A stretch of DNA of 64,000 nt from Acidobacteriaceae bacterium (GTDB lineage Bacteria > Acidobacteriota > Terriglobia > Terriglobales > Acidobacteriaceae). The notes under the pieces are model-generated. The model searched no databases. It was not told the DNA's origin and saw nothing but the letters and a program-made list of their open reading frames with translations. The stretch's first letter is position 1; each line of letters opens with the position of its first letter. Both the position numbers and the translations under genes were made by a program. Shown piece after piece: positions 553 through 62,510 of this stretch. Location: the NCBI GenBank assembly GCA_965199215.1, contig CBDAQY010000003.1:72070-136069 (forward strand). Direction: 5' to 3'.

Positions 553-1113
553 TCACCGACGAAAGCAATCCTCTGCATGATCATTCATCATGCCTGCCGC
601 CTGCATCCAGGCATAGACGATCACCGGCCCCACAAACTTGAAGCCTTTTTGCTTGAGCTCCTTCGAAATCGTCTCCGAAAGCGGCGTCTGCGCCGGCAGT
701 GCTCCTTCGTTTCGGATCGGCTTCCCGCCCACCAGACCCCACGCCCATCTTCCGAACTCTGTTCCGCTCTCCCGCATTTCGAGAAAGATCTGCGCCCCGC
801 GAATCGTCGCCTCGATCTTCGCCCTTGCCCGAACAATGCCTGCGTCCGCCATCAAGCGCGCCACATCCGCTTCTTCAAATCGAGCCACAACAGCCGGATC
901 GAACTCCGCAAATGCACGCCGAAACGCCTCCCGCTTACGCAGCACTGTGATCCACGAAAGCCCCGCCTGAAACCCTTCCAGCATCAACAGCTCCCAAAGC
1001 GCGCGGCTATCGAACTCCGGAACACCCCACTCCCGATCGTGGTACTCCCGCATCAGCGGATCGTTCTGCGCCCACGCGCACCGCTTGATTGCCTCGCCGC
1101 TATCCGTCTTCAC
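553..1113 (-). CDS. tag: DNA-3-methyladenine glycosylase I
   Basis: ORF 553..1281. It aligns by eye with E. coli Tag from RCAWAQNDPLMREYHDREWGVPE through FVGPVIVYAWMQAAGMMNDH. GTG at 1113 gives a Tag-sized 186-aa product. The longer N-terminus reads through repeat A1. Confidence 0.85.
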   Translation of the reverse strand: MKTDSGEAIKRCAWAQNDPLMREYHDREWGVPEFDSRALWELLMLEGFQAGLSWITVLRKREAFRRAFAEFDPAVVARFEEADVARLMADAGIVRARAKIEATIRGAQIFLEMRESGTEFGRWAWGLVGGKPIRNEGALPAQTPLSETISKELKQKGFKFVGPVIVYAWMQAAGMMNDHAEDCFRR

Positions 1114-1134
1114 CCTTGCCTCTTCCTCTTTTGA

Positions 1135-1166
1135 TTTGTCATTCCCGCAGGGAATCTGCGTTTCGC
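1135..1166. repeat. repeat family A (TTTGTCATTCCCGCAGGGAATCTGCG)
   Basis: Core hairpin ATTCCC-gca-GGGAAT. Lies between divergent tag and the GH13 gene. Confidence 0.85.
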
Positions 1167-1298
1167 ACTCGCTCCCCGCCACCTGGAACGTTACCAAACA
1201 TCCGGCGATCTCCAACCGTAAGAAACATTTCGCGTAAGATGGTGGGCGCTTGCGACAGATGCTCTGCCGCGCTCTCACCACCTGCTGGAGGTACGACT

Positions 1299-3053
1299 AT
1301 GTCTTTCAGGAATTTAGCCCTTTGCCTCACCCTTGGCGCTCTCACCGTTGCACACGGCCAGCAATCGCCTCCGCGCCAGGAACAGGCAGTCGTCAGCCGT
1401 ACCAGCGCCGACGCCTGGTGGAAGCACGCCGTCATCTACGAGGTCTACCCCCGCAGCTTCCAGGACTCCGACGGTGACGGCAAGGGCGACATCAAGGGCA
1501 TCGAGAGCCGCCTCGAGTACCTGAAAACCCTCGGCATCGACGCCATCTGGATCACCCCCATGTATCCGTCCCCGCAGGTAGACTTCGGCTACGACATCGC
1601 CGACTACACAGCCATCGATCCGCAGTACGGCACCATGGGCGACTTCGACCTGCTCCTGAAGACAGCCAATAAACACGGCATCAAGGTCATCATGGACATC
1701 GTCCTCAACCACACCTCCGACCAGCACCCCTGGTTCCTGGAGTCAAAATCCTCGAAGACGAACCCGAAGCGCGATTGGTACATCTGGCATGACGGCCGCG
1801 AAGCCAAAGATGGAAAGGCTGGAAGTTACCCGAACAACTGGCAGTCCTGGTTCGGGCACTCTGCCTGGACGCTCGACCCAACCACCAACCAGTACTACTA
1901 CCACTACTTCTACACCCAGCAGCCGGACCTCAACTGGCGCAATCCCGAGGTCCGCAAAGCGATGTACGGCGTCATGAAGTTCTGGCTGGACAAAGGTGTA
2001 GCAGGCTTCCGCATGGACGCGGTCTCCCGTCTCTTCGAAGACCCCGACCTCCACGACGACCCCTATCTGCCGGGCTTTAACGCATTCGGCGACCGCAACA
2101 TCAAGCACCAATACACCGATGATCTTCCCGAAGTTCACGAGGTCTTTCGCGAACTCCGCAAGCTCGCGGACAGCTATCCGAATCACCCGGTCCTGATCGC
2201 TGAAGCCGATGAACCGACGATCGCCGACCTTAGCAAGATGTATGGCACGCATGGCGACGAAGTCCAGCTTCCCATGGACTTCCAGATCGCCGACCTCAAC
2301 GAACTGTCCGCCCCGAAGTTTCGCAAGCTCTTTAGCGAAGTCGAAACCAACCCCGCCGACGGCTGGCCCGAATGGTTCTTCAGCAACCACGATCAGGTCC
2401 GCCAGTGGGAGCGCTACGGCGACGGCAAGCACAATCTCGAGATTGCGAAGTTGATGGCCGTCCTCGAACTGACCCCCCGCGGCACCCCGCAGATGTACTA
2501 CGGCGAAGAGATTGGCATGCGCACCACCGAACCCGCCCGCAAGGAAGATGTCCGCGACCCCATCGGCATCACCGGCTGGCCAAAAGAAAAAGGCCGCGAC
2601 GGCGAACGCACCCCAATGCAGTGGACCTCCGTCGCGCCCAACGCAGGCTTCACGACTCCCACCGCGATACCGTGGCTTCCCGTCCCACCAAACGCCCGCA
2701 CCATCAACGTAGAGACCGAGTCCGCCGATCCCAAGAGCCTGTTGAACTTCTACAAATCACTTCTTCAACTCCGTCACACAGAGGCCGCCCTGATGTTCGG
2801 CGACTACACCACCCTCAACCCGGACGACCCCCACGTCTTCAGCTTCATGCGCAAAGTCCCGCCGGGCAGCGAAGGCCACAACATCCTCGTCGCCCTGAAC
2901 ATGAGCGCCACGCCGCAAACAGTTCGCTTCGACACCGTTGGAGCGAAAGGCGGCACGGTTCTTCAGAGCAACTACAGTGCCGCCGGCTCGAAGCTTGATC
3001 TCGGCTCTGTCGAGCTTCCGCGCTTCGGCGCGATCATCATCGGGCTGGAGTAA
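1299..3053 (+). CDS. GH13 alpha-glucosidase / oligo-1,6-glucosidase-like enzyme with signal peptide
   Basis: GH13 conserved regions DIVLNH, GFRMDAV and FSNHD are present. ATG at 1299 is preceded by GGAGG and gives MSFRNLALCLTLGALTVAHG. The upstream part of the ORF is a read-through of repeat A1. Confidence 0.85.
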   Translation: MSFRNLALCLTLGALTVAHGQQSPPRQEQAVVSRTSADAWWKHAVIYEVYPRSFQDSDGDGKGDIKGIESRLEYLKTLGIDAIWITPMYPSPQVDFGYDIADYTAIDPQYGTMGDFDLLLKTANKHGIKVIMDIVLNHTSDQHPWFLESKSSKTNPKRDWYIWHDGREAKDGKAGSYPNNWQSWFGHSAWTLDPTTNQYYYHYFYTQQPDLNWRNPEVRKAMYGVMKFWLDKGVAGFRMDAVSRLFEDPDLHDDPYLPGFNAFGDRNIKHQYTDDLPEVHEVFRELRKLADSYPNHPVLIAEADEPTIADLSKMYGTHGDEVQLPMDFQIADLNELSAPKFRKLFSEVETNPADGWPEWFFSNHDQVRQWERYGDGKHNLEIAKLMAVLELTPRGTPQMYYGEEIGMRTTEPARKEDVRDPIGITGWPKEKGRDGERTPMQWTSVAPNAGFTTPTAIPWLPVPPNARTINVETESADPKSLLNFYKSLLQLRHTEAALMFGDYTTLNPDDPHVFSFMRKVPPGSEGHNILVALNMSATPQTVRFDTVGAKGGTVLQSNYSAAGSKLDLGSVELPRFGAIIIGLE

Positions 3054-3557: not shown

Positions 3558-4292
3558 TCAGTGCGTCGACTTTCCCAGCAACTCCTCCACTGACCCACAA
3601 GCCAGCATCTGCCTCCCAAATACCCGCCCAAAGCTCTTCGCCGTCGCATTGATCGCCTCTTCCATCGTCGGCACCCGATCCGCCTCGACCTCGAGACTCG
3701 TCACATCCCGGTCCGCAATCCCGCATGGCACGATCCACTGAAAGTCCCGCAAGTCTGTCGTCACATTCAGCGCAAATCCATGTGACGTAACCCCCTGCGA
3801 CACATGCACTCCAATCGCAGCGATCTTCTTCTCCTGAATGCTTTTACCTGCATCCGGATGCACGACCGTCCAAACCCCGGTTCTCTTCGGCACCCGCTGC
3901 GCCTGCACCCCAAACTCTCCACACGCGCGAATTAACACCTCTTCCAGCAGCCGCACAAAATCCACGGGCCCTAGATGAGGCCCCTTCTTCCCCGGCAGAT
4001 CTCCCCGCAGATCGACAATCGGATACCCCACCAACTGCCCCGGCCCGTGATACGTCACATCCCCGCCGCGGTTCGTCTCATGCAACTCCACCCCGCGCCG
4101 CACAAGCTCCTCATCTGAAGCCAGCACATTCGCCCGGCTTGAATTCCTCCCCAGCGTCAGCACCGGCGGATGCTCCATCAGCAGCAGCACATCCCCGATC
4201 GCTCCGGCCTTGCGCGCAGCAACCACCCGCTGCTGCACCGCCAGCCCTTCCGCATAAAAGATTCTGCCCAGCGAAATCAGATGGGTGTACAT
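3558..4292 (-). CDS. lipB: lipoyl(octanoyl) transferase
   Basis: LLLMEHPPVLTLGRN, RGGDVTYHGPGQLVGYP and KIAAIGV are typical LipB blocks. The start was taken at MYTHLISLG. Confidence 0.85.
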   Translation of the reverse strand: MYTHLISLGRIFYAEGLAVQQRVVAARKAGAIGDVLLLMEHPPVLTLGRNSSRANVLASDEELVRRGVELHETNRGGDVTYHGPGQLVGYPIVDLRGDLPGKKGPHLGPVDFVRLLEEVLIRACGEFGVQAQRVPKRTGVWTVVHPDAGKSIQEKKIAAIGVHVSQGVTSHGFALNVTTDLRDFQWIVPCGIADRDVTSLEVEADRVPTMEEAINATAKSFGRVFGRQMLACGSVEELLGKSTH

Positions 4293-10293: not shown

Positions 10294-10423
10294 CTGTCAT
10301 CCTTCGAGTAATACTCGGCCCTCAAACCTTGTCATCCTTCGCGCGATACCCCCACCTGGAGTGTCATCCTGAGTGAAGCCACTCGCAGCCTCATCGCGAG
10401 TGGCGCAGTCGAAGGACCTGCTC
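10294..10423 (+). repeat. repeat family B: two truncated heads plus one full unit (10361-10423)
   Basis: GTGTCATCCTGAGTGAAGC-[gccactcgc..gcgagtggc hairpin]-GCAGTCGAAGGACCTGCTC. Truncated gtcatccttcg heads are at 10296 and 10330. Confidence 0.85.
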
Positions 10424-15134: not shown

Positions 15135-17891
15135 GTGAACCCGCCGTCCCTCCTCCCCGAAGTCCCGTCCCCCCTCCTCGAATCGAGCGCCATTGCCCTT
15201 GAGTGGCCGCGCCTCCGCGAGCACATCGCCACCCGCACCACCTCGCCTCTCGGCCGAGCCTGGATCACGGCCCTGGAGCCGTCCTCCGACCTCCTGTGGA
15301 TTGAGCAACAGCATCAACGCACCGCCGAACTCCGCGCCATGCTTACCGCCGGAGGCACCTTCGACTTCAATGGCCTCTTCGATCCAACCCTGCTGCTGGA
15401 GAAAGCGCGCATCGACGGCTCCGCTCTCGAATCGCTCGAAATACTCAACCTCCTCAGCGTCGCCGAGCGAGTCGCCGCCTGGCGCAACCTCTTCGCCTCC
15501 GCCGAAGCCCGTCGCAACAACGGTCTCGTCTCAGCCACCAGCATCGCGACCCTTACCGCCCCATTACTCGACCACGACCTCGCCCCGCTCCTCCGCACAC
15601 TCCGCGGCAAGATTGAACCCGACGGCTCGCTCTCAGACGACGCCAGCCCCGAGCTCCGCCGCATCCGTCGCGCCATGGAGCGCCAGCACCGCGCGATCGA
15701 AGAGTCCCTCCGCAAGTCCCTGCGGTCCCTGGCAAGCGAGGGCAGTACGAGCGCCGGCGGCGGTTCGCTACGAGACGAACTCATCACCATCCGCGGCGAC
15801 CGCTTCGTCATCCCGGTCAAAGCGGAGTTCCGCCGCCGCGTCCCCGGCGTCATCCACGGAGCTTCTTCTTCTGGGCAGACTGTGTTTGTGGAACCCCTCG
15901 AAACCATCGAGCAAAATAACGAACTCGTCCGCCTCCTCGACGAAGAACAATCCGAGATACACCGCATCCTCGTCGCCCTGACCCGCGCTCTCGGTGAAAA
16001 CGCCACGGCCCTCCACCTCGGCACCGCCATCCTCGCCGAAGTTGAATCTCACATCGCCCGCGCACGCTTCGCCAACGACCTCGACTGCACCCGCCCCCTC
16101 TTCATTCAGGACGATGCAAATCGCAGAATGCAGGACGATGCAAACCGAGGAATGCAGGGCGATGTAAATAGAGGAATGCAGGACGATGTAAATAGAGGAA
16201 CTCAGGACGATGTAATTAGAAGAACGCAGGGCGACTTAAATAAAAGTGTCATGCTGAGCGAAGCGCAAAGCGCGCAGTCGAAGGACCTGCTGTTAAGCCC
16301 AGCGAACGCCCCTCAAATCTCCCTCACCGCCGCCCGCCATCCTCTCCTCGAACTCCGAATGCGCACCGCAGCCCGCGAATCTGGCGAAGCCGCCAAATCC
16401 CCCATCCCGCTAACCATCGCTCTCCCCAACGACGCCCGCCAGCTCATCATTAGTGGCCCTAACACCGGCGGCAAAACCGTCTCCCTCAAAACCACCGGCC
16501 TCCTCGCCTTAATGGCGCAGGCCGGAATTCCCGTTCCCGCCGAAGAGGCGAAGTTTCCCCTCTTCCACTCCATTTACGCCGACATCGGCGACGCCCAGTC
16601 CATCGAGCGCAACCTATCCAGCTTTTCCGCCCACGTCGTCAACCTCGACCGCATCTCCCGCCTCGCAGGGCCGGCGTCTCTGGTCTTATTAGACGAACTA
16701 GGCTCCGCCACCGACCCCGAAGAAGGCGCAGCACTCGCTGTGGCCATCGCCTCGCACTTCCTCGCCACCCGGGCCTGGTGCTGCATCACCACCCATCTCA
16801 CCTCGCTCAAGGTCTACGCCGCCAACCACGCCGGAGTCCTCAACGCCGCCGTCGGCTTCGACCAGGAGACCCTCTCGCCCACCTACCAACTCCGCCTCGG
16901 CGTTCCCGGAGCCTCAGCCGGCCTCAACATCGCCGCCCGCCTTGGCATGTCGCCCGCCATCATTGAAGAAGCCCGCGCCCAGATGACCACCCAGACCGCC
17001 GACATCGGCGCCTTCCTCGATCAACTTCATGACCAGCTTCGTGCCGCGGAGAGCGAACGCGACAGCCTCCGCGCCCGCGAAGAAGAACTCCGCAAAGAAC
17101 GCATCAAGCTCGACATCGAGGGCCGTGCCGAACAAAAAGCCCGCATTCGCGAGCTCGAACAAAAGCTGGAGTCTCTCATGCAGGACTTCGCCACCCAGGT
17201 AAAAGACACCGTCAAGCTCATCGACGACAAGACCCTCAAGCAGAAGATCTCCCGCGACGCCGATCTCCGCCTCGCCCGCGCGAAGCGTGAATTTTCCGAA
17301 CAGTTCAAATCCACTGTAGTCGCTCACAACACCGGTGCCGACAAGCACCCAGACAAGGCCTCTGCCTCTAAATCGGCCCTGCAATCGGCCCAGCGCACCA
17401 TAAAACCTGGCGACCTCGTCACCCTTAAATCACTAGGCCGGCAGGCCCGAGTCGAACGCGTGATCGACGCCAGAAACTACGAGGTCTCCATCGGCCCCAT
17501 GAAGATGCGTGCCGTCCTAGACGACATCACCGACGTCCAATCGGTGGCTGTCGTCACCCCCTTACAAGCAGCCCGCAAGCGTGGAGGCATCACCGTCTCT
17601 ACCTCCGCAAACTCCGGCTCCGCGTCGGACTACGCCTCCGACTACATGCCCTCCGAGATCAACGTCATCGGTCGCACCGCCGACGAAGCCGAGACCGAGG
17701 TTGAACGCTTCCTCGACCGCGCCTTCCTCGCTGGCCTCCCCAGCATCCGCATCGTCCACGGCACGGGCATGGGCATCCTCCGCAGAACGTTACGCGAATA
17801 CCTGCGCTCACACCCCCACGTCACCACCGTCACCGAACCCCCACAAAACGAAGGCGGCCAGGGAGCCACGGTAGTCGAACTCCGCCAGTAA
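15135..17891 (+). CDS. mutS2: endonuclease MutS2 (with a repeat-derived insertion)
   Basis: Walker A GPNTGGKT, LLDELGSATDP and C-terminal Smr domain INVIGRTADEAETEVERFLD...IVHGTGMGILR. GTG start. 918 aa, which is long for MutS2. Confidence 0.9.
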   Translation: MNPPSLLPEVPSPLLESSAIALEWPRLREHIATRTTSPLGRAWITALEPSSDLLWIEQQHQRTAELRAMLTAGGTFDFNGLFDPTLLLEKARIDGSALESLEILNLLSVAERVAAWRNLFASAEARRNNGLVSATSIATLTAPLLDHDLAPLLRTLRGKIEPDGSLSDDASPELRRIRRAMERQHRAIEESLRKSLRSLASEGSTSAGGGSLRDELITIRGDRFVIPVKAEFRRRVPGVIHGASSSGQTVFVEPLETIEQNNELVRLLDEEQSEIHRILVALTRALGENATALHLGTAILAEVESHIARARFANDLDCTRPLFIQDDANRRMQDDANRGMQGDVNRGMQDDVNRGTQDDVIRRTQGDLNKSVMLSEAQSAQSKDLLLSPANAPQISLTAARHPLLELRMRTAARESGEAAKSPIPLTIALPNDARQLIISGPNTGGKTVSLKTTGLLALMAQAGIPVPAEEAKFPLFHSIYADIGDAQSIERNLSSFSAHVVNLDRISRLAGPASLVLLDELGSATDPEEGAALAVAIASHFLATRAWCCITTHLTSLKVYAANHAGVLNAAVGFDQETLSPTYQLRLGVPGASAGLNIAARLGMSPAIIEEARAQMTTQTADIGAFLDQLHDQLRAAESERDSLRAREEELRKERIKLDIEGRAEQKARIRELEQKLESLMQDFATQVKDTVKLIDDKTLKQKISRDADLRLARAKREFSEQFKSTVVAHNTGADKHPDKASASKSALQSAQRTIKPGDLVTLKSLGRQARVERVIDARNYEVSIGPMKMRAVLDDITDVQSVAVVTPLQAARKRGGITVSTSANSGSASDYASDYMPSEINVIGRTADEAETEVERFLDRAFLAGLPSIRIVHGTGMGILRRTLREYLRSHPHVTTVTEPPQNEGGQGATVVELRQ
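16107..16247 (+). repeat. 24-bp tandem repeat, about 5.9 copies, in frame inside mutS2
   Basis: Units start at 16107, 16131, 16155, 16179, 16203 and 16227 (caggacgatgcaaatcgcagaatg and variants). They encode Q[DG]D[AV][NI][RG][RG][MT] octapeptides. AT-richer than the flanking sequence. Confidence 0.9.
16246..16293 (+). repeat. repeat family B, short unit, in frame inside mutS2
   Basis: gtgtcatgctgagcgaagcgcaaagcgcgcagtcgaaggacctgctgt, translated VMLSEAQSAQSKDLLL. Confidence 0.85.
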
Positions 17892-39910: not shown

Positions 39911-39973
39911 GTGTCATCCTGAGCGGAACAAATCGCGGTTGTCTTGCGATTCGGAAGTCGAAGGACCTGCTGT
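39911..39973 (+). repeat. repeat family B
   Basis: Head gtgtcatcctgagcgg, hairpin aatcgc..gcgatt, tail gaagtcgaaggacctgctgt. Confidence 0.85.
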
Positions 39974-52122: not shown

Positions 52123-52186
52123 GTGTTATCCTGAGCGTAGTCTCTCGCTGGAATTATCGCGAGAGACGCAGTCGAAGGATCTGCGG
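52123..52186 (+). repeat. repeat family B
   Basis: Head gtgttatcctgagcg, hairpin gtctctcgc..gcgagagac, tail gcagtcgaaggatctgcgg. Confidence 0.85.
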
Positions 52187-52653: not shown

Positions 52654-54738
52654 CTACAGCACCGCCGACTTCCCCTTCACCAACCCAGCCGCCCGGTCCA
52701 CAAATGCCTCTAACGAAACCCCACCCTCATCGCCCTTACCCCGCGTCCTCACGCTGACGCTCTCGCTCGCCGCTTCTTTGTCCCCCATGATCAGCACAAA
52801 CGGCACCTTCTGCAGCATGAACTCGCGAATCTTCGCATTCATCTTCTCGTTCCGAGCGTCGAGCTCCACCCGCAGCCCCGCAGCCTCTAAGCGGCTCTTC
52901 ACCTGCGAAGCGTACTCAAGGTGCTTATCCGAAGAGATCGGCACCAACCCAATCTGCACCGGTGCAAGCCACATCGGAAACGCACCCGCATAGTGCTCGA
53001 TCAGCACGCCGAAGAACCGCTCGACCGACCCAAACAGCGCCCGATGCACCATCACCGGCTGATGCATCTCGCCGTCTTCGCCCTTGTACTCAAGCCCGAA
53101 TCGCGCGGGCAGATTGAAATCAAATTGCACCGTCGAAAGCTGCCACAACCGCCCCAGCACATCGACCAGCTTGATATCAATCTTCGGCCCATAGAATGCG
53201 CCTTCTCCCGGTATCGCTTTGAACGAAACCCCGCGCTTCGTCAGCGTCTGCTTCAGCGTCGCTTCCGCCTTCTCCCAGTCGGCCTCGCTGCCGACGAACT
53301 CGCCAGCCTTCTTCGGATCGTGCAGCGACAGTTCAACCCGGTACTCCTCAAACCCAAACGTCTTCAGCACCGCCTCGGCAAAGTCGAGACAAGCCTCTAT
53401 TTCACTGTCGATCTGTGCGGGCGTACAAAAGATATGCGCATCGTCCTGGGTAAATCCACGCACCCGCAGCAGTCCATGCATCGTTCCCGACCGCTCATAC
53501 CGATACACATTTCCCAGCTCCGCATACCGCACCGGCAGATCGCGATAGCTCTTCGGCGAGTTCTTATAAATCAAAATGTGCCCGGGGCAGTTCATCGGCT
53601 TCAGCCGGTACTCGGCATCGTCCAGCTCCATCGGCGGATACATATTCTCCGCATAGAACCCCTCGTGCCCCGAGATCTTCCACAGCTCCCGCCGCATGAT
53701 GTGTGGCGTGTAGACCATCTCGTACCCGCGCCGAATGCACTCATCGCGCATCCAGTCTTCCATCGTCTTGCGGATCAGACCGCCCTTCGGATGCCAGAAG
53801 ATCAGCCCCGATCCCGCTACCTCCTGGATCGAAAACAGATCGAGCTGCTTACCCAGCACGCGATGATCGCGCGCCTTGATCTCCTCAAGCCGCTTGAAGT
53901 GCGCGTCCAAATCCTTGGCATTGAAAAAGGCAGTCCCATAGATCCGCTGCAGTTGCTGGTTCTTCTCATCGCCCAGCCAGTAAGCCCCCGCAACCGAGGT
54001 CACCTTGAACGCCTTTACCCGTCCCGTCGAAGGAACATGCGGCCCCCTGCAGAAGTCCGTAAACCCACCATTCTTGTAAAGTGAAATCTCGTCACCCGGC
54101 TTGGTAAACCGTTCAATGAAGTGGACTTTCATGAACTCGCCCTGAGCCTCATAATCCGAGAGCCCTTTCTCGCGAGTCTCTTCCTCCCGGACGAACTTTT
54201 CATCCCGCGCCACCACCTCGGCCATCCTCGCCTCGATGGCCGCGAGATCAGCATCGGAAAACGGCGTCTCCCGATAAACGTCATAGAAGAACCCCGCATC
54301 CGTCGCCGGCCCATGCCCCAGCTTGGTCTCCGGAAACAGTTCGAGAATCGCCGTCGCCATCACATGCGCCGCCGAGTGCCGCACCACTCTCAGCGCGGCC
54401 TCGTCATTCTCCTTCAGCAACTCCAGCGCAACATCCTCATTCAGCGGCGCCCCCAGATCCACCAGCCTCTCGCCGGCCTCTTGATGGACCCCATACATCG
54501 ACTCCTCCGCCGAATCCGGGTGCCCCATATCTCGATTCTGAGATGTGGGGTCTTCACCCTCACCCTCATCGGTCTTCTTCAGCGGCTTCACCCGAGCCAC
54601 CACGACCGCCGCCGCCAACCTCGGCGAGATACTCATCGCCACGTCCAGCGGAGTCGTTCCCTTCGCCACCTCGCGCACCGAACCATCCGGCAACTGCACT
54701 CGAATCATCTGCGCCGTCTCAACCATCAGCTCACTCAT
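52654..54738 (-). CDS. thrS: threonine--tRNA ligase (with an insertion in the TGS domain)
   Basis: TGS N-terminus, HSAAHVMA editing-domain motif, class II motifs (FRRE-like HIMRRELW, GFTQDDAHIF, GAFYGPKID) and an anticodon-binding C-terminus. Confidence 0.93.
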   Translation of the reverse strand: MSELMVETAQMIRVQLPDGSVREVAKGTTPLDVAMSISPRLAAAVVVARVKPLKKTDEGEGEDPTSQNRDMGHPDSAEESMYGVHQEAGERLVDLGAPLNEDVALELLKENDEAALRVVRHSAAHVMATAILELFPETKLGHGPATDAGFFYDVYRETPFSDADLAAIEARMAEVVARDEKFVREEETREKGLSDYEAQGEFMKVHFIERFTKPGDEISLYKNGGFTDFCRGPHVPSTGRVKAFKVTSVAGAYWLGDEKNQQLQRIYGTAFFNAKDLDAHFKRLEEIKARDHRVLGKQLDLFSIQEVAGSGLIFWHPKGGLIRKTMEDWMRDECIRRGYEMVYTPHIMRRELWKISGHEGFYAENMYPPMELDDAEYRLKPMNCPGHILIYKNSPKSYRDLPVRYAELGNVYRYERSGTMHGLLRVRGFTQDDAHIFCTPAQIDSEIEACLDFAEAVLKTFGFEEYRVELSLHDPKKAGEFVGSEADWEKAEATLKQTLTKRGVSFKAIPGEGAFYGPKIDIKLVDVLGRLWQLSTVQFDFNLPARFGLEYKGEDGEMHQPVMVHRALFGSVERFFGVLIEHYAGAFPMWLAPVQIGLVPISSDKHLEYASQVKSRLEAAGLRVELDARNEKMNAKIREFMLQKVPFVLIMGDKEAASESVSVRTRGKGDEGGVSLEAFVDRAAGLVKGKSAVL
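54518..54552 (+). repeat. repeat family C inside the thrS coding sequence
   Basis: ccccatatctc-gattct-gagatgtgggg, translated on the minus strand as PTSQNRDMGHP. Confidence 0.85.
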
Positions 54739-54799: not shown

Positions 54800-54863
54800 G
54801 TGTCATCCCGAGCGGCGTAGTTCGCTCGCCTTCTCGCGAACTACGCAGTTGAAGGATCTCCGG
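54800..54863 (+). repeat. repeat family B
   Basis: Head gtgtcatcccgagcgg, hairpin cgtagttcgc..gcgaactacg, tail cagttgaaggatctccgg. Confidence 0.85.
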
Positions 54864-60061: not shown

Positions 60062-62284
60062 TCACGGGACAGGCGCCACCACCGTCATACCCTTCTCGGC
60101 GAAGAGCGTCCTGGCTTCCTTCTCTGAAGCCATCTGGTCCGCATGGTCTGGCGAAGCGGCGCTCAAAGTAAAGACTGTCCCCTTCGGGTACTGCTCGATC
60201 TTCTCGCCCAGGAGCGTGATAGACCTCACGTCATACTGGCCAACCTGGTAGTTCTCCGACGTCTCATTCTGGTAGAGCGACACATGGAGAGGCGCGGTCG
60301 CCATCAGCGCAAGCTGTTTCATTTGCTGGCACATCTGTTCGCCCACGCAGCTCTTCACCACGCTCGCAATCAACTGATCGTCGGCCAGCCATCCCTGGTT
60401 GGCGATCAACGCCCTCCCCAGACCAGCACCGACCCAGATCTCCTGATTATTCTTCTGCGCCGTCTCACGATCCTGCGACTCGAGAACTTCCGCCTTACCG
60501 GCCCACATCTCTATCCACTTCGAGTACCGTTCCTGGATCGGCCTTTCGTCTTCCTTCCGTCCATGCCATGCAATATAGAGCAGCGCGTCCATCAATGTTT
60601 GATTGTCAGCATCGTCCAGAGCGGCCATCGCCGCATCCGTCAGCACCGCTCCCGACGCATGAGCAGATACATCCTGAAACAGCGAGTGACTGCATCCCGT
60701 CGTGCCGCCATGAATCGCCCGAGGCAACAGCGGCTTGACACTATCCGGATCGAACCTTACCAGGTAGGCCAGCGCCGCCGCCTGCGGAGCGCAAGCCCAC
60801 GCACCCACTTTGCTGTTCAGCTTGCCCGCCACCTGCGAAGCAGCCGTGCCCCTTCCAAAACGCACCATCAATCCAGCCAGCACAGCTTCTTCTTCTTCGT
60901 CATTGCTCTCCACCAGTCGCTGCGCCCAGACCTCCTCATACTGCGAGAGCGTCTGAGATGCGGCAGACTTTTCCGGTAGATAGAAGAGCGACTGCCCCGT
61001 CAGCAACGGCGTCTCCGATCCAACCTCCGCCACAATCTCCCGCGTCGCACCCTCCGGGTCAAGCTCGTACCAGCGATGCAACGCCGCCGCCTTCAACTCC
61101 CGCCGTGAGTACACGTTCGTGCGCTGGCTCAGCAGGTTGGTCAGCGAGAGCCTCGCCCGGTCCCTCAATGCGGGCAACATCGCCTCAGACCGCAGAGCGT
61201 CCCAACTGTACTCCAACTGCATCGTCTGCTGGTTCTCCGTCAAGTCGAGAAACGACTCCCCCAGCACCGCACCCAGCGAGGCTTTTGCCTCCGCGCTCAA
61301 GTGGTCCGGCTGCCTCACCGTCAGTGTCTGTGCTGTCTCCGCCCGCGCCTTCCCGTCCTTGCGCGCGAGCCCCGCCAGCACCCGCTGCCATGCTTTATCC
61401 CACAGCTGCCCGTAACGTTCATCGATCCCATTCCCGACCGGCGCATCGCCCAGCTCCTCAACGGTTGGCAGCGAATCCAGAAACCACGTGCAGACCGGAA
61501 AATGAGGATCGTCGATCGCCCGTTCCATGGCCTCAAGCCCCATTTCACGCATCGACTCCGGGAGCCCCATCAGCCCGAACGCGCTCTGAGGCATCATGCT
61601 CATCCGGTCCTCGCGAAGGTTGGCCACCAGCACGTCGACCGCCGCCCTGGTCCCCAGATATCTCAGGTCCGCCACTGCGGCCACCCTCCCCGGCGCCACT
61701 ACGCCCATCGTCTCCGGCTCGGCTTTCAGCTCATCGAGTATCGCCGCCAGCTTCTCTGCCTGCCACTCCTTCGTCGCCGCCACAATCTGCACCGAAATAG
61801 GATTAGCCGCGTCGATAGGCCGCCCGCTCATTCCGTGGTGATCTGATCTCTTCAAGTCCACCACCCGGGTGCTGCTCACTGTCACCGTGTAGCTACCGGG
61901 CTGATCAAAGCGCACCCACTGGTTCAGATCGACCTCCAACTCCGTAGGCTTGGCGGACAACTCCTCGATCCCACTCATCCCGCCGCCCATGTAGCCCCTC
62001 GCGAAGTACCGCGCGAGCGGATCGACCCACCCTCCGCCTGGACTGACCTTGAACTCTTCGTAGTGCTCTCTTCCACTGCGGTCGGAAGTCGCATTCGATA
62101 TCTCATACCGCTTCTCTTCCGCCGCCGTGAAGCTCAGCTCCAGTGGAATGCGTTCCCCTACGCGAAACGTCGTCCGGCCGCCCGCGATCTGCACCCGCAG
62201 CACAGGCCCACCCTGCGCGAAAGTCATCGGCACAACCAGCAACGCGCACACATACGCAAGCGTATTTATTCGTAAGCGATTCAA
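60062..62284 (-). CDS. large secreted hypothetical protein
   Basis: TTG at 62284 gives LNRLRINTLAYVCALLVVPMTFAQG, a signal-like N-terminus. A beta-sandwich-like N-terminal part is followed by a long helical part. The track ORF extension to 62506 reads through three repeat elements. Confidence 0.6.
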   Translation of the reverse strand: MNRLRINTLAYVCALLVVPMTFAQGGPVLRVQIAGGRTTFRVGERIPLELSFTAAEEKRYEISNATSDRSGREHYEEFKVSPGGGWVDPLARYFARGYMGGGMSGIEELSAKPTELEVDLNQWVRFDQPGSYTVTVSSTRVVDLKRSDHHGMSGRPIDAANPISVQIVAATKEWQAEKLAAILDELKAEPETMGVVAPGRVAAVADLRYLGTRAAVDVLVANLREDRMSMMPQSAFGLMGLPESMREMGLEAMERAIDDPHFPVCTWFLDSLPTVEELGDAPVGNGIDERYGQLWDKAWQRVLAGLARKDGKARAETAQTLTVRQPDHLSAEAKASLGAVLGESFLDLTENQQTMQLEYSWDALRSEAMLPALRDRARLSLTNLLSQRTNVYSRRELKAAALHRWYELDPEGATREIVAEVGSETPLLTGQSLFYLPEKSAASQTLSQYEEVWAQRLVESNDEEEEAVLAGLMVRFGRGTAASQVAGKLNSKVGAWACAPQAAALAYLVRFDPDSVKPLLPRAIHGGTTGCSHSLFQDVSAHASGAVLTDAAMAALDDADNQTLMDALLYIAWHGRKEDERPIQERYSKWIEMWAGKAEVLESQDRETAQKNNQEIWVGAGLGRALIANQGWLADDQLIASVVKSCVGEQMCQQMKQLALMATAPLHVSLYQNETSENYQVGQYDVRSITLLGEKIEQYPKGTVFTLSAASPDHADQMASEKEARTLFAEKGMTVVAPVP

Positions 62285-62362
62285 GTCCGCACCTCGCCGA
62301 GTCTGCTTACTTAGACTCCGCCACCCGCATTCCTGTTCCCTATGCGACGCGCATACCTGTTG

Positions 62363-62390
62363 CTCCATGTCTCGCTTCTGAGAAATGGGC
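62363..62390 (+). repeat. repeat family C, degenerate
   Basis: ctccatgtctcgcttctgagaaatgggc. Confidence 0.55.
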
Positions 62391-62418
62391 CCTGTCACCT
62401 CGACATCATTCCTGAGGC

Positions 62419-62479
62419 GTGTCTCCTGAGCGGAGCTTCTTGCAGTCTCACCGTAAGAAGCCAGTCGAAGGACCTTTAG
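62419..62479 (+). repeat. repeat family B
   Basis: Head gtgtctcctgagcgg, hairpin gcttctt..aagaagc, tail cagtcgaaggaccttt. Confidence 0.8.
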
Positions 62480-62481
62480 TT

Positions 62482-62510
62482 CGCTTCCGACGGGTGGGAA
62501 CACCACCGCC
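62482..62510 (+). repeat. motif family D
   Basis: cgcttccgacgggtgggaacaccaccgcc. Confidence 0.5.

Follow-up and report, generated by a model that had tools for sequence, protein, structure and literature searches.

What is a long, repetitive, in-frame segment doing immediately ahead of the ATPase domain of a MutS2 protein, and does the host gene use it or merely carry it? The question is raised by the mutS2 gene in a 64,000-nt stretch of contig CBDAQY010000003.1 (hereafter the window), whose source organism belongs to the Acidobacteriaceae, with Granulicella and Edaphobacter as nearest named relatives. A sequence-only reading of the window had described the segment as an insertion composed of a 24-bp tandem array and one copy of an interspersed repeat (family B), and had proposed that a DNA-repair gene tolerates, and may have co-opted, mobile repeat DNA. 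Alignment with orthologs bears out both the extra in-frame segment between conserved blocks and its composition. What the description as an oddity of a single gene had overlooked is that the turn of MutS2 occupied by the segment is a lineage-wide insertion hot spot and no one-off. We consider it likely that the segment represents selfish and slippage-derived DNA tolerated in a structurally permissive turn, and not a functional module.

A turn of MutS2 that collects inserts

The protein from the window was aligned with its 120 closest homolog clusters (MAFFT --retree 2). The CxRPxF block to the left of the site is conserved across the 120 homologs, and residues A400, R401, H402, P403, L404, L405, and E406 to its right are invariant; in the window, the flanking blocks read CTRPLF and ISLTAARHPLLE. 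Only three residues (GSE, TQE, GAE, and similar) separate CxRPxF from xSLTAARHPLLE in 72 of the 120 clusters, and the 9 nt of this baseline turn are themselves variable. Forty-three clusters (43/120) contain between 7 and 104 amino acids at exactly the same site, with contents that are unrelated between lineages. The site yields 176 insert columns in the alignment, every other internal site of MutS2 yielding 15 or fewer, and is the dominant length-variable site of the protein in its closest relatives. In 81 species-representative genomes, which were fetched regardless of gene calls, the reading frame is open through the site at every locus; counted by locus, the frame is uninterrupted there in all 83 that were fetched independently.

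Of 72 insert segments, at least 25 have matches in DNA that does not belong to a mutS2 gene, a conservative count obtained with a database of only ~0.7 Mb. The insert peptide VILSEAK(D/N)P... is family B translated in sense, GAPRxDSxTW and HISESRCGAP correspond to a further interspersed family (C), one for each orientation, and RVPHLRDG.. is found among the insert translations of families B and C. Additional repeat types translated at the site are RVPHLRDGFIVAKVG, VISTDQREWRDPRISP, LLSSRSEAEGPAV, and DKYRGLS..RSGRDDV. Other species have in-frame tandem duplications in the same place, namely three copies of 21 bp (P0007), 45 bp (P0051), or 33 bp (P0073), and four copies of 12 bp (L078, positions 3925-3993). 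These duplications are independent, and local expansion at the site is recurrent. The duplicated peptides are, in the same order, EEDRVPQ, PLLSSRSEAEGPAVA, and RDDVAGGAGFN, each present three times, and SAG[KT], present four times.

Among more distant Terriglobales (L028-L081, ~50% identity), peptides of the CGDGRPRPS and ALSEAEGSA types were observed in the MutS2 loop (for example, L056:8052-8095 and L049:1905-1934). They are translated from other GC-rich hairpin repeats, which are present too in the flanking intergenic DNA of those genomes.

Anatomy and history of the insert in the window

The Pfam domains of the protein are MutS_V (residues 437-618, 2e-32), MSSS (758-797, 1.4e-06), and Smr (842-917, 1.5e-23), and the frame is open to the Smr domain, as had been read from the sequence. 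The protein thus combines a MutS domain V ABC ATPase bearing a Walker A motif with a KOW/MSSS region and a C-terminal Smr domain. No Pfam match to MutS_I (mismatch recognition) or MutS_II (connector) was obtained in the 918-residue sequence, and the lack of both is characteristic of MutS2 (PMC10897456). Residue 20 aligns to residue 7 of Bacillus subtilis MutS2; sequence searches matched the MutS2 structures of B. subtilis (E = 1e-111), T. maritima, and T. thermophilus, and the best Foldseek matches of the predicted fold are MutS2 as well. The earlier designation as a DNA-repair gene is uncertain, since MutS2 is devoid of mismatch-recognition domains and the B. subtilis protein works as an ATPase in ribosome-collision rescue (PMC10897456). 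A description as a MutS paralogue, with ribosome-collision rescue or suppression of recombination as implicated functions, suits MutS2 better than one as a mismatch-repair protein. The linker between the KOW and Smr domains varies by 15 or fewer amino acids among homologs and contains no interspersed repeats. A second, small in-frame tandem repeat of the window gene (17612-17645, period 12, 2.8 copies, SDYASDY) lies in the linker before Smr.

The structural position of the insert was assessed on an AlphaFold2 model built from a 59-sequence alignment, with a mean predicted local distance difference test score (pLDDT) of 69. Two strands, residues 322-324 and 395-400 (pLDDT 90-96, with ~94 up to residue 320 and ~90 in the second strand), flank residues 327-391, for which pLDDT is 27-42 and no secondary structure is modeled. 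This arrangement would place the insert in a hairpin turn at the junction between the core/lever and the ATPase, where it is predicted to be disordered. The HMMER alignments to solved MutS2 structures are interrupted at this very point; that to B. subtilis MutS2 ends at TRPLF (query residue 323, chain residue 296) and resumes at query residue 427 (chain residue 321). The phmmer alignments to Escherichia coli MutS start at query residue 391, equivalent to MutS residue 574, which is reportedly the start of the ATPase domain (Lamers et al., 2000).

The orthologs set slightly longer boundaries for the variable segment (Table 1) than the 16107-16310 proposed from the sequence, and its layout is an array, a short family B repeat, and 21 bp of further DNA. 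The array begins on a codon of the 15135-17891 open reading frame (ORF), as had been noted. Tandem Repeats Finder reports a period of 24 over 16107-16242, with 5.7 copies, 84% matches, and 0% indels; by eye, the sixth, partial unit reaches 16247/16250 and there passes into the following element, giving 5.7-5.9 units overall. The units are translated as QDDANRRM, QDDANRGM, QGDVNRGM, QDDVNRGT, QDDVIRRT, and QGDLNKS, and the degenerate pattern derived previously is right except at position 6, which is always R or K. The array has no secondary structure (folding z = -0.3). Its GC content (0.42-0.47, versus ~0.64 for the surrounding gene) and its positive GC skew (+0.3 to +0.5), reversed relative to the negative skew of the gene, mark it as a local island. 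Adjacent units are the most alike (20-21 of 24 positions identical), and identity drops with distance, so that the stepwise divergence proposed for an AT-richer array holds. Head-to-tail copies, a period that is a multiple of three, and the absence of indels are the features of an in-frame variable-number tandem repeat (VNTR). Searches of the rest of the window, of 84 fetched loci, and of JGI metagenome contigs (two scans) yielded no further copies of the 24-bp unit; hence, the array is local in origin and, contrary to the earlier reading, is not itself mobile repeat DNA.

The family B element that follows is real, although the 48 nt that encode VMLSEAQSAQSKDLLL occupy 16248-16295, two bases to the right of the interval 16246-16293 assigned earlier; with its GT prefix, the element begins at 16246. 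Both family ends are kept (left end with one mismatch, right end with none). The copy had been called complete, but nearly all of the central hairpin is lost, leaving a 4-bp stem, GCGC-AAA-GCGC. Its fold is no more stable than that of shuffled sequence (z = +0.34), whereas three of four full-length intergenic copies reach z-scores of -2.7 to -3.1. Without the stable central stem-loop of 7-11 bp that marks family B, it represents a truncated variant, common to the window and the more distant locus L082 (P0002).

Table 1. Features of the mutS2 locus and related repeats; coordinates are positions in the window.
Feature	Coordinates	Strand	Description
mutS2	15135..17891	+	Intact 918-aa ORF; core/lever-clamp, ABC ATPase, coiled coil, KOW/MSSS, Smr
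Codons of residues 322-324 (PLF plus I324)	16098..16106	+	Last conserved strand ahead of the variable segment
Lineage-specific variable segment	16104..16316	+	Residues 324-394, 71 aa; versus a 3-aa turn in 72/120 homolog clusters
24-bp in-frame tandem array	16107..16247	+	Five full units and one truncated unit; purine-/A-rich
Short family B copy, hairpin-depleted	16246..16295	+	GTGTCATGCTGAGCG ... CAGTCGAAGGACCTGCTG; translated (S)VMLSEAQSAQSKDLLL
Trailing insert DNA	16296..16316	+	AGCCCAGCGAACGCCCCTCAA; read as SPANAPQ; right junction
ISLTAA codons	16317..16334	+	Residues 395-400; first ATPase-domain strand, into the RHPLLE motif
Walker A, GPNTGGKT	16455..16478	+	Residues 441-448; 46 residues past the insert; invariant columns
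Full-length intergenic family B example	10361..10423	+	9-bp central hairpin; -15 kcal/mol, z = -3.07
Family C repeat in the threonyl-tRNA synthetase gene (52654-54738, -)	54512..54549	+	In-frame, antisense, DPTSQNRDMGHP; enlarged TGS-domain loop

The history of the insert can be followed in three related loci. A metagenome contig (L001) encoding a protein 97% identical to that of the window has the same architecture with seven units versus six; the first and last units of the two arrays are identical, and the interior units differ. A near-identical third strain (L084), on a contig labelled with 4x coverage, has six units. Thus, the array is present in three independent assemblies, in answer to the earlier concern about an assembly artefact, and its copy number varies among close strains (six in the window and L084, seven in L001), as had been anticipated. 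The more distant L082 has the short family B copy in the same frame as in the window and L001, followed by CTGTTAAKCCCAGC and the right junction, and has no array; a block of ~190 nt (191 alignment columns) with three C-like repeats is nested between its family B copy and the right junction, splitting the trailing insert DNA that it has in common with the window. Since the window, L001, and L082 have the family B copy in common, its insertion is ancestral to these lineages. By the same comparison, the array is a younger, local expansion of A-rich DNA directly 5' of family B. Derivation of the 24-bp unit from the reverse-complemented left end of family B was considered and is not convincing, the resemblance being limited to 8 nt (TCCTGAGT) in two units. 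A search for a single-copy progenitor upstream of family B in L082 and L083 gave only weak A-rich similarities (AAYAARAGT).

Could the array be an assembly error, or mutS2 a decaying gene whose frame is open by accident? Such a reading draws on L084, where five extra bases within the interval equivalent to 16104-16392 break the frame and the gene is called only from residue 460. At 4x coverage, however, the 1-nt insertions of L084 occur here and there in genes and spacers alike, and its substitutions show a strong C bias, a pattern typical of read error; the indels are judged to be such errors, real decay being possible. The window protein is encoded on a 2.36-Mb contig, L001 is independently intact with one more unit, and outside the insert the protein is highly conserved, Walker A and the Smr domain being intact. 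An artefact or a pseudogene is therefore very improbable. As to the distribution of the L084 indels, four of ten indel positions fall within a 290-bp stretch (L084:2572-2850, window 16104-16392).

Interspersed families and the replication strand

The window contains three interspersed families, A (TTGTCATTCCCGCAGGGAATCTGC), B (conserved ends GTGTCATCCTGAGCG ... CAGTCGAAGGAYCTGC; zero matches expected by chance), and C (GGTGCCCCATATCTCGATTCTGAGATGTGGG). Further family B copies are located at 10361, 39358, 39911, 51511, 52123, 54800, and 62420. Outside the central stem, the ends of family B pair over only 4 bp (TCCT/AGGA). The central stems at 10361-10423, 39911-39972, 52123-52186, and 54800-54861 differ in sequence, keep complementarity, and have a TCGC...GCGA apex in common. 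Families A and B have the end motifs GTCATYCC ... GGRWYCTGC in common and, judging by these motifs, may belong to one superfamily. Scanned in its entirety against Rfam at gathering thresholds, the window matched zero families, so none of A, B, and C is a known RNA family. A core resembling that of a hammerhead (CUGAGCG...CGAAGGA) was considered for family B and dismissed by inspection, as the CUGANGA and GAAA signatures do not occur in it. The termini of A, B, and C carry neither the GTAG nor the CGTC tetranucleotide of repetitive extragenic palindromic (REP) elements, and the eight family B copies inspected show no evident direct duplication at their flanks. No transposase was identified for the three families, the ORFs of the window not having been scanned for Y1_Tnp.

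All window copies of families A (11), B (8-9), and C (3-6) lie on the + strand. The GC skew of the window is strong and uniform, between -0.16 and -0.26 per 8-kb block whatever the orientation of the genes. For elements outside mutS2 in all fetched loci, oriented by mutS2, the ratio of + to - orientation is 26:0 where the skew is below -0.05 and 1:15 where it is above +0.05 (Fisher p = 1.6e-10), and the copies inside mutS2 obey the same rule. Since orientation flips with GC skew, what it tracks is the replication strand and not transcription. As a consequence, one and the same family is read in sense in the MutS2 of some species and in antisense in others, and it is read in antisense in the threonyl-tRNA synthetase (ThrRS) gene thrS of the window.

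The ThrRS case demonstrates that repeat passengers are a trait of the lineage and not of mutS2 alone. Its close orthologs contain one or two C copies or a different repeat (PTHDDGTVMDGAP), and more distant orthologs contain none. The baseline TGS loop of ThrRS in Acidobacteriaceae is already ~27 aa longer than that of E. coli.

Insertion bias, and not tolerance of the protein, could also concentrate elements in one place, if a transposase preferred the local DNA or a resident element. The elements do cluster in intergenic DNA as adjacent pairs (397/440, 24895/24940, 59901/59945, and 62352/62420 in the window), L082 has nested insertions within an existing insert, and another presumably permissive linker of MutS2 is uncolonised. 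Nonetheless, no common target motif was found at the left flanks of family B, the 9 nt of the baseline turn offer no constant sequence, and the site has received unrelated families, both orientations, and pure tandem duplications. Site-specific targeting is quite unlikely as the main cause and is compatible with the reading as tolerated DNA as its seeding component, not as its replacement; a contribution of targeting or seeding to the hot spot is conceivable.

Tolerance, possible use, and known in-frame repeats

The reading as tolerated DNA can be set out as a succession of events. In the common ancestor of the window, L001, and L082, a family B element, accompanied by some tens of bp of A-rich flanking sequence, came to occupy the three-residue core/lever-ATPase turn. 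Only the window lineage then saw a 24-bp stretch directly 5' of the element duplicated head to tail to six or seven units, presumably by replication slippage or unequal recombination; array copy number is still shifting between near-identical strains, and the L082 lineage took three nested repeats instead. Selection for a working MutS2 would purge frameshifts and stops, so that stop-free multiples of 3 bp remain, and the surviving inserts would encode a hydrophilic, disordered loop that leaves the flanking domains undisturbed. The turn acts as intergenic space in Acidobacteriaceae and Terriglobales, collecting repeat families and tandem duplications, and an occupied loop takes up further elements. 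Given that their orientation goes with the replication strand, not with transcription, the elements may be mobilised as single-stranded hairpins whose movement is coupled to replication, much like IS200/IS605 or REP elements.

Several observations weigh against this reading. The frame-breaking insertions of L084 lie in or near the insert itself. Tolerance is deduced solely from the open frames and from the conservation of the rest of the gene. Many different inserts share a final ...PQ before [ILV]SL, so part of the recurrence may reflect turnover within one old insert instead of independent hits. The KOW-Smr linker was expected to be permissive too, and its lack of interspersed repeats implies that permissiveness alone may not account for the hot spot. 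In the shallow-alignment AlphaFold2 model, residues 203-252 and 566-593, which are conserved, also have low pLDDT. Finally, with no transposase identified and with neither GTAG/CGTC tags nor clear inverted repeats, it is the strand bias that has to carry the proposed mechanism of mobility.

An adaptive role would require that the length or charge of the loop modulate MutS2 in ribosome splitting or recombination suppression, the repeat variation being selected, which would amount to the co-option suggested by the sequence-only reading. The insert does sit at an interdomain junction beside the ATPase, its length differs between very close strains, variation at the site persists over the whole order, and an altered activity has been put forward, as speculation, for repair genes that contain REPs (Di Nocera et al., PMC3733652). 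On the other hand, insert contents are unrelated across lineages and form different repeat mosaics, 60% of the close homolog clusters have no insert, and the segment is predicted to be disordered. The peptides have no common motif, being set by the frame of the element and its replication-strand orientation, ThrRS has the same kind of passenger insert, and the array unit is a multiple of three, so that a change in copy number cannot switch the gene on or off. We thus regard a tunable linker as unlikely. No evidence in support of co-option was found, given that the content is unconserved, most close clusters are without an insert, and the peptide is dictated by element frame and orientation.

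A bolder form of the same idea is that the core/ATPase junction is maintained in Terriglobales as a landing pad for replication-coupled, strand-oriented hairpin elements, mobilised by acidobacterial RAYT-like transposases, with insertion, nesting, excision, and local in-frame expansion producing a strain-level length polymorphism that tunes MutS2. This seems unlikely. If it were true, tuning of MutS2 in ribosome rescue or anti-recombination would shift recombination or mutation rates, and mobile DNA would create selectable variation in a factor of genome maintenance or translation quality control.

Two precedents for in-frame repeats are already established, the Rickettsia palindromic elements (RPEs) located inside coding regions (Ogata et al., 2000, as cited in PMC10969869) and the intragenic GTAG/CGTC REPs described by Di Nocera et al. 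(2013, PMC3733652), many of which lie in replication and repair genes, for example uvrABCD, recBCD, polA, and dnaE2. Like RPEs, the elements described here are short palindromic or hairpin repeats that occur in-frame in unrelated housekeeping genes and are translated at positions judged to suit the fold. Members of dispersed families are found in mutS2 (B) and thrS (C), with orthologs that have or lack the inserts, and a surface or loop position of the mutS2 insert is indicated by the AlphaFold2 model only. They differ in the host, a soil acidobacterium that lives freely and has a high-GC genome, not a reduced intracellular bacterium, in size (~25-65 bp versus ~100-150 bp for RPEs), in the reuse of one site by many families together with a locally generated tandem array, and in that nearly all copies here are intergenic.

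The intragenic REPs are comparable in that REP-like stem-loops, single or clustered, encode 20-80 extra residues in DNA-metabolism genes, which are presumed to survive through the loop or linker location of the inserts; the same study defined an Acidobacteria-specific group of RAYT-like Y1 transposases, the TIRYTs (PMC3733652). Unlike these REPs, families A, B, and C have no terminal tag. The cases reported for such REPs include neither MutS2 nor Acidobacteriaceae, and neither the repeated occupation of a single homologous site throughout an order nor an adjoining array of variable copy number has been described for them. Single-strand transposition coupled to replication, as described for IS200/IS605 and proposed for REP/RAYT systems (PMC6006769, PMC3733652), resembles the present case in its hairpin elements and in an orientation that tracks the replication strand (with the sign of the GC skew as proxy); the likeness is one of behaviour only, as neither a Y1 transposase nor a cleavage motif nor a target tetranucleotide was identified in the present case. 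With in-frame bacterial VNTRs, the array shares head-to-tail copies, a period that is a multiple of 3 bp, strain-variable copy number, conserved edges, and a variable interior. Such VNTRs, however, are typical of genes for surface or contingency functions, whose variation is regarded as adaptive, whereas this array adjoins a mobile-element remnant in the gene of a cytoplasmic ATPase that it cannot switch on or off.

No prior description of the site was found in the literature searched on MutS2 in Acidobacteria, repeats of Acidobacteriaceae, and hypervariable insertions of MutS2. The aspects that are apparently new are MutS2 and the Acidobacteriaceae as hosts, the untagged element families, the order-wide reuse of one turn, and the adjoining VNTR. 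Translated in-frame insertions of the REP/RPE type, best known in Rickettsia and a few REP-rich proteobacteria, thus extend to abundant free-living soil Acidobacteriota. The turn amounts to a natural experiment, in which one homologous three-residue turn of a conserved ATPase was filled dozens of times by differing repeat mosaics and tandem expansions of 0 to ~100 residues while the gene stayed intact, and it makes testable how far a protein junction tolerates random peptides, whether resident elements seed further insertions, and how non-coding repeats give rise to new protein segments. The differences in length of MutS2 (788-941 aa) and ThrRS in these taxa reflect repeat content, not domain gain, and peptides such as VILSEAK.. 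or GAPRxDSxTW within annotated proteins flag inserts of this kind. The array is a potential marker for strain typing, and the near-absolute link between orientation and GC skew provides a lead to the mechanism of mobilisation.

Apart from those in mutS2 and thrS, the A, B, and C copies of the window are either intergenic or located at doubtful N-termini. Two candidates for in-frame N-terminal inserts, at 62352-62477 in a gene on the - strand (60062-62506) and at 1136-1159 in an alpha-amylase-family gene on the + strand (1089-3053), were rejected as probably wrong. The former lies upstream of a signal-peptide-like start and the latter ~100 residues before the alpha-amylase domain, where the start codon is uncertain; both fall within longest-ORF extensions, probably due to an over-extended start codon.

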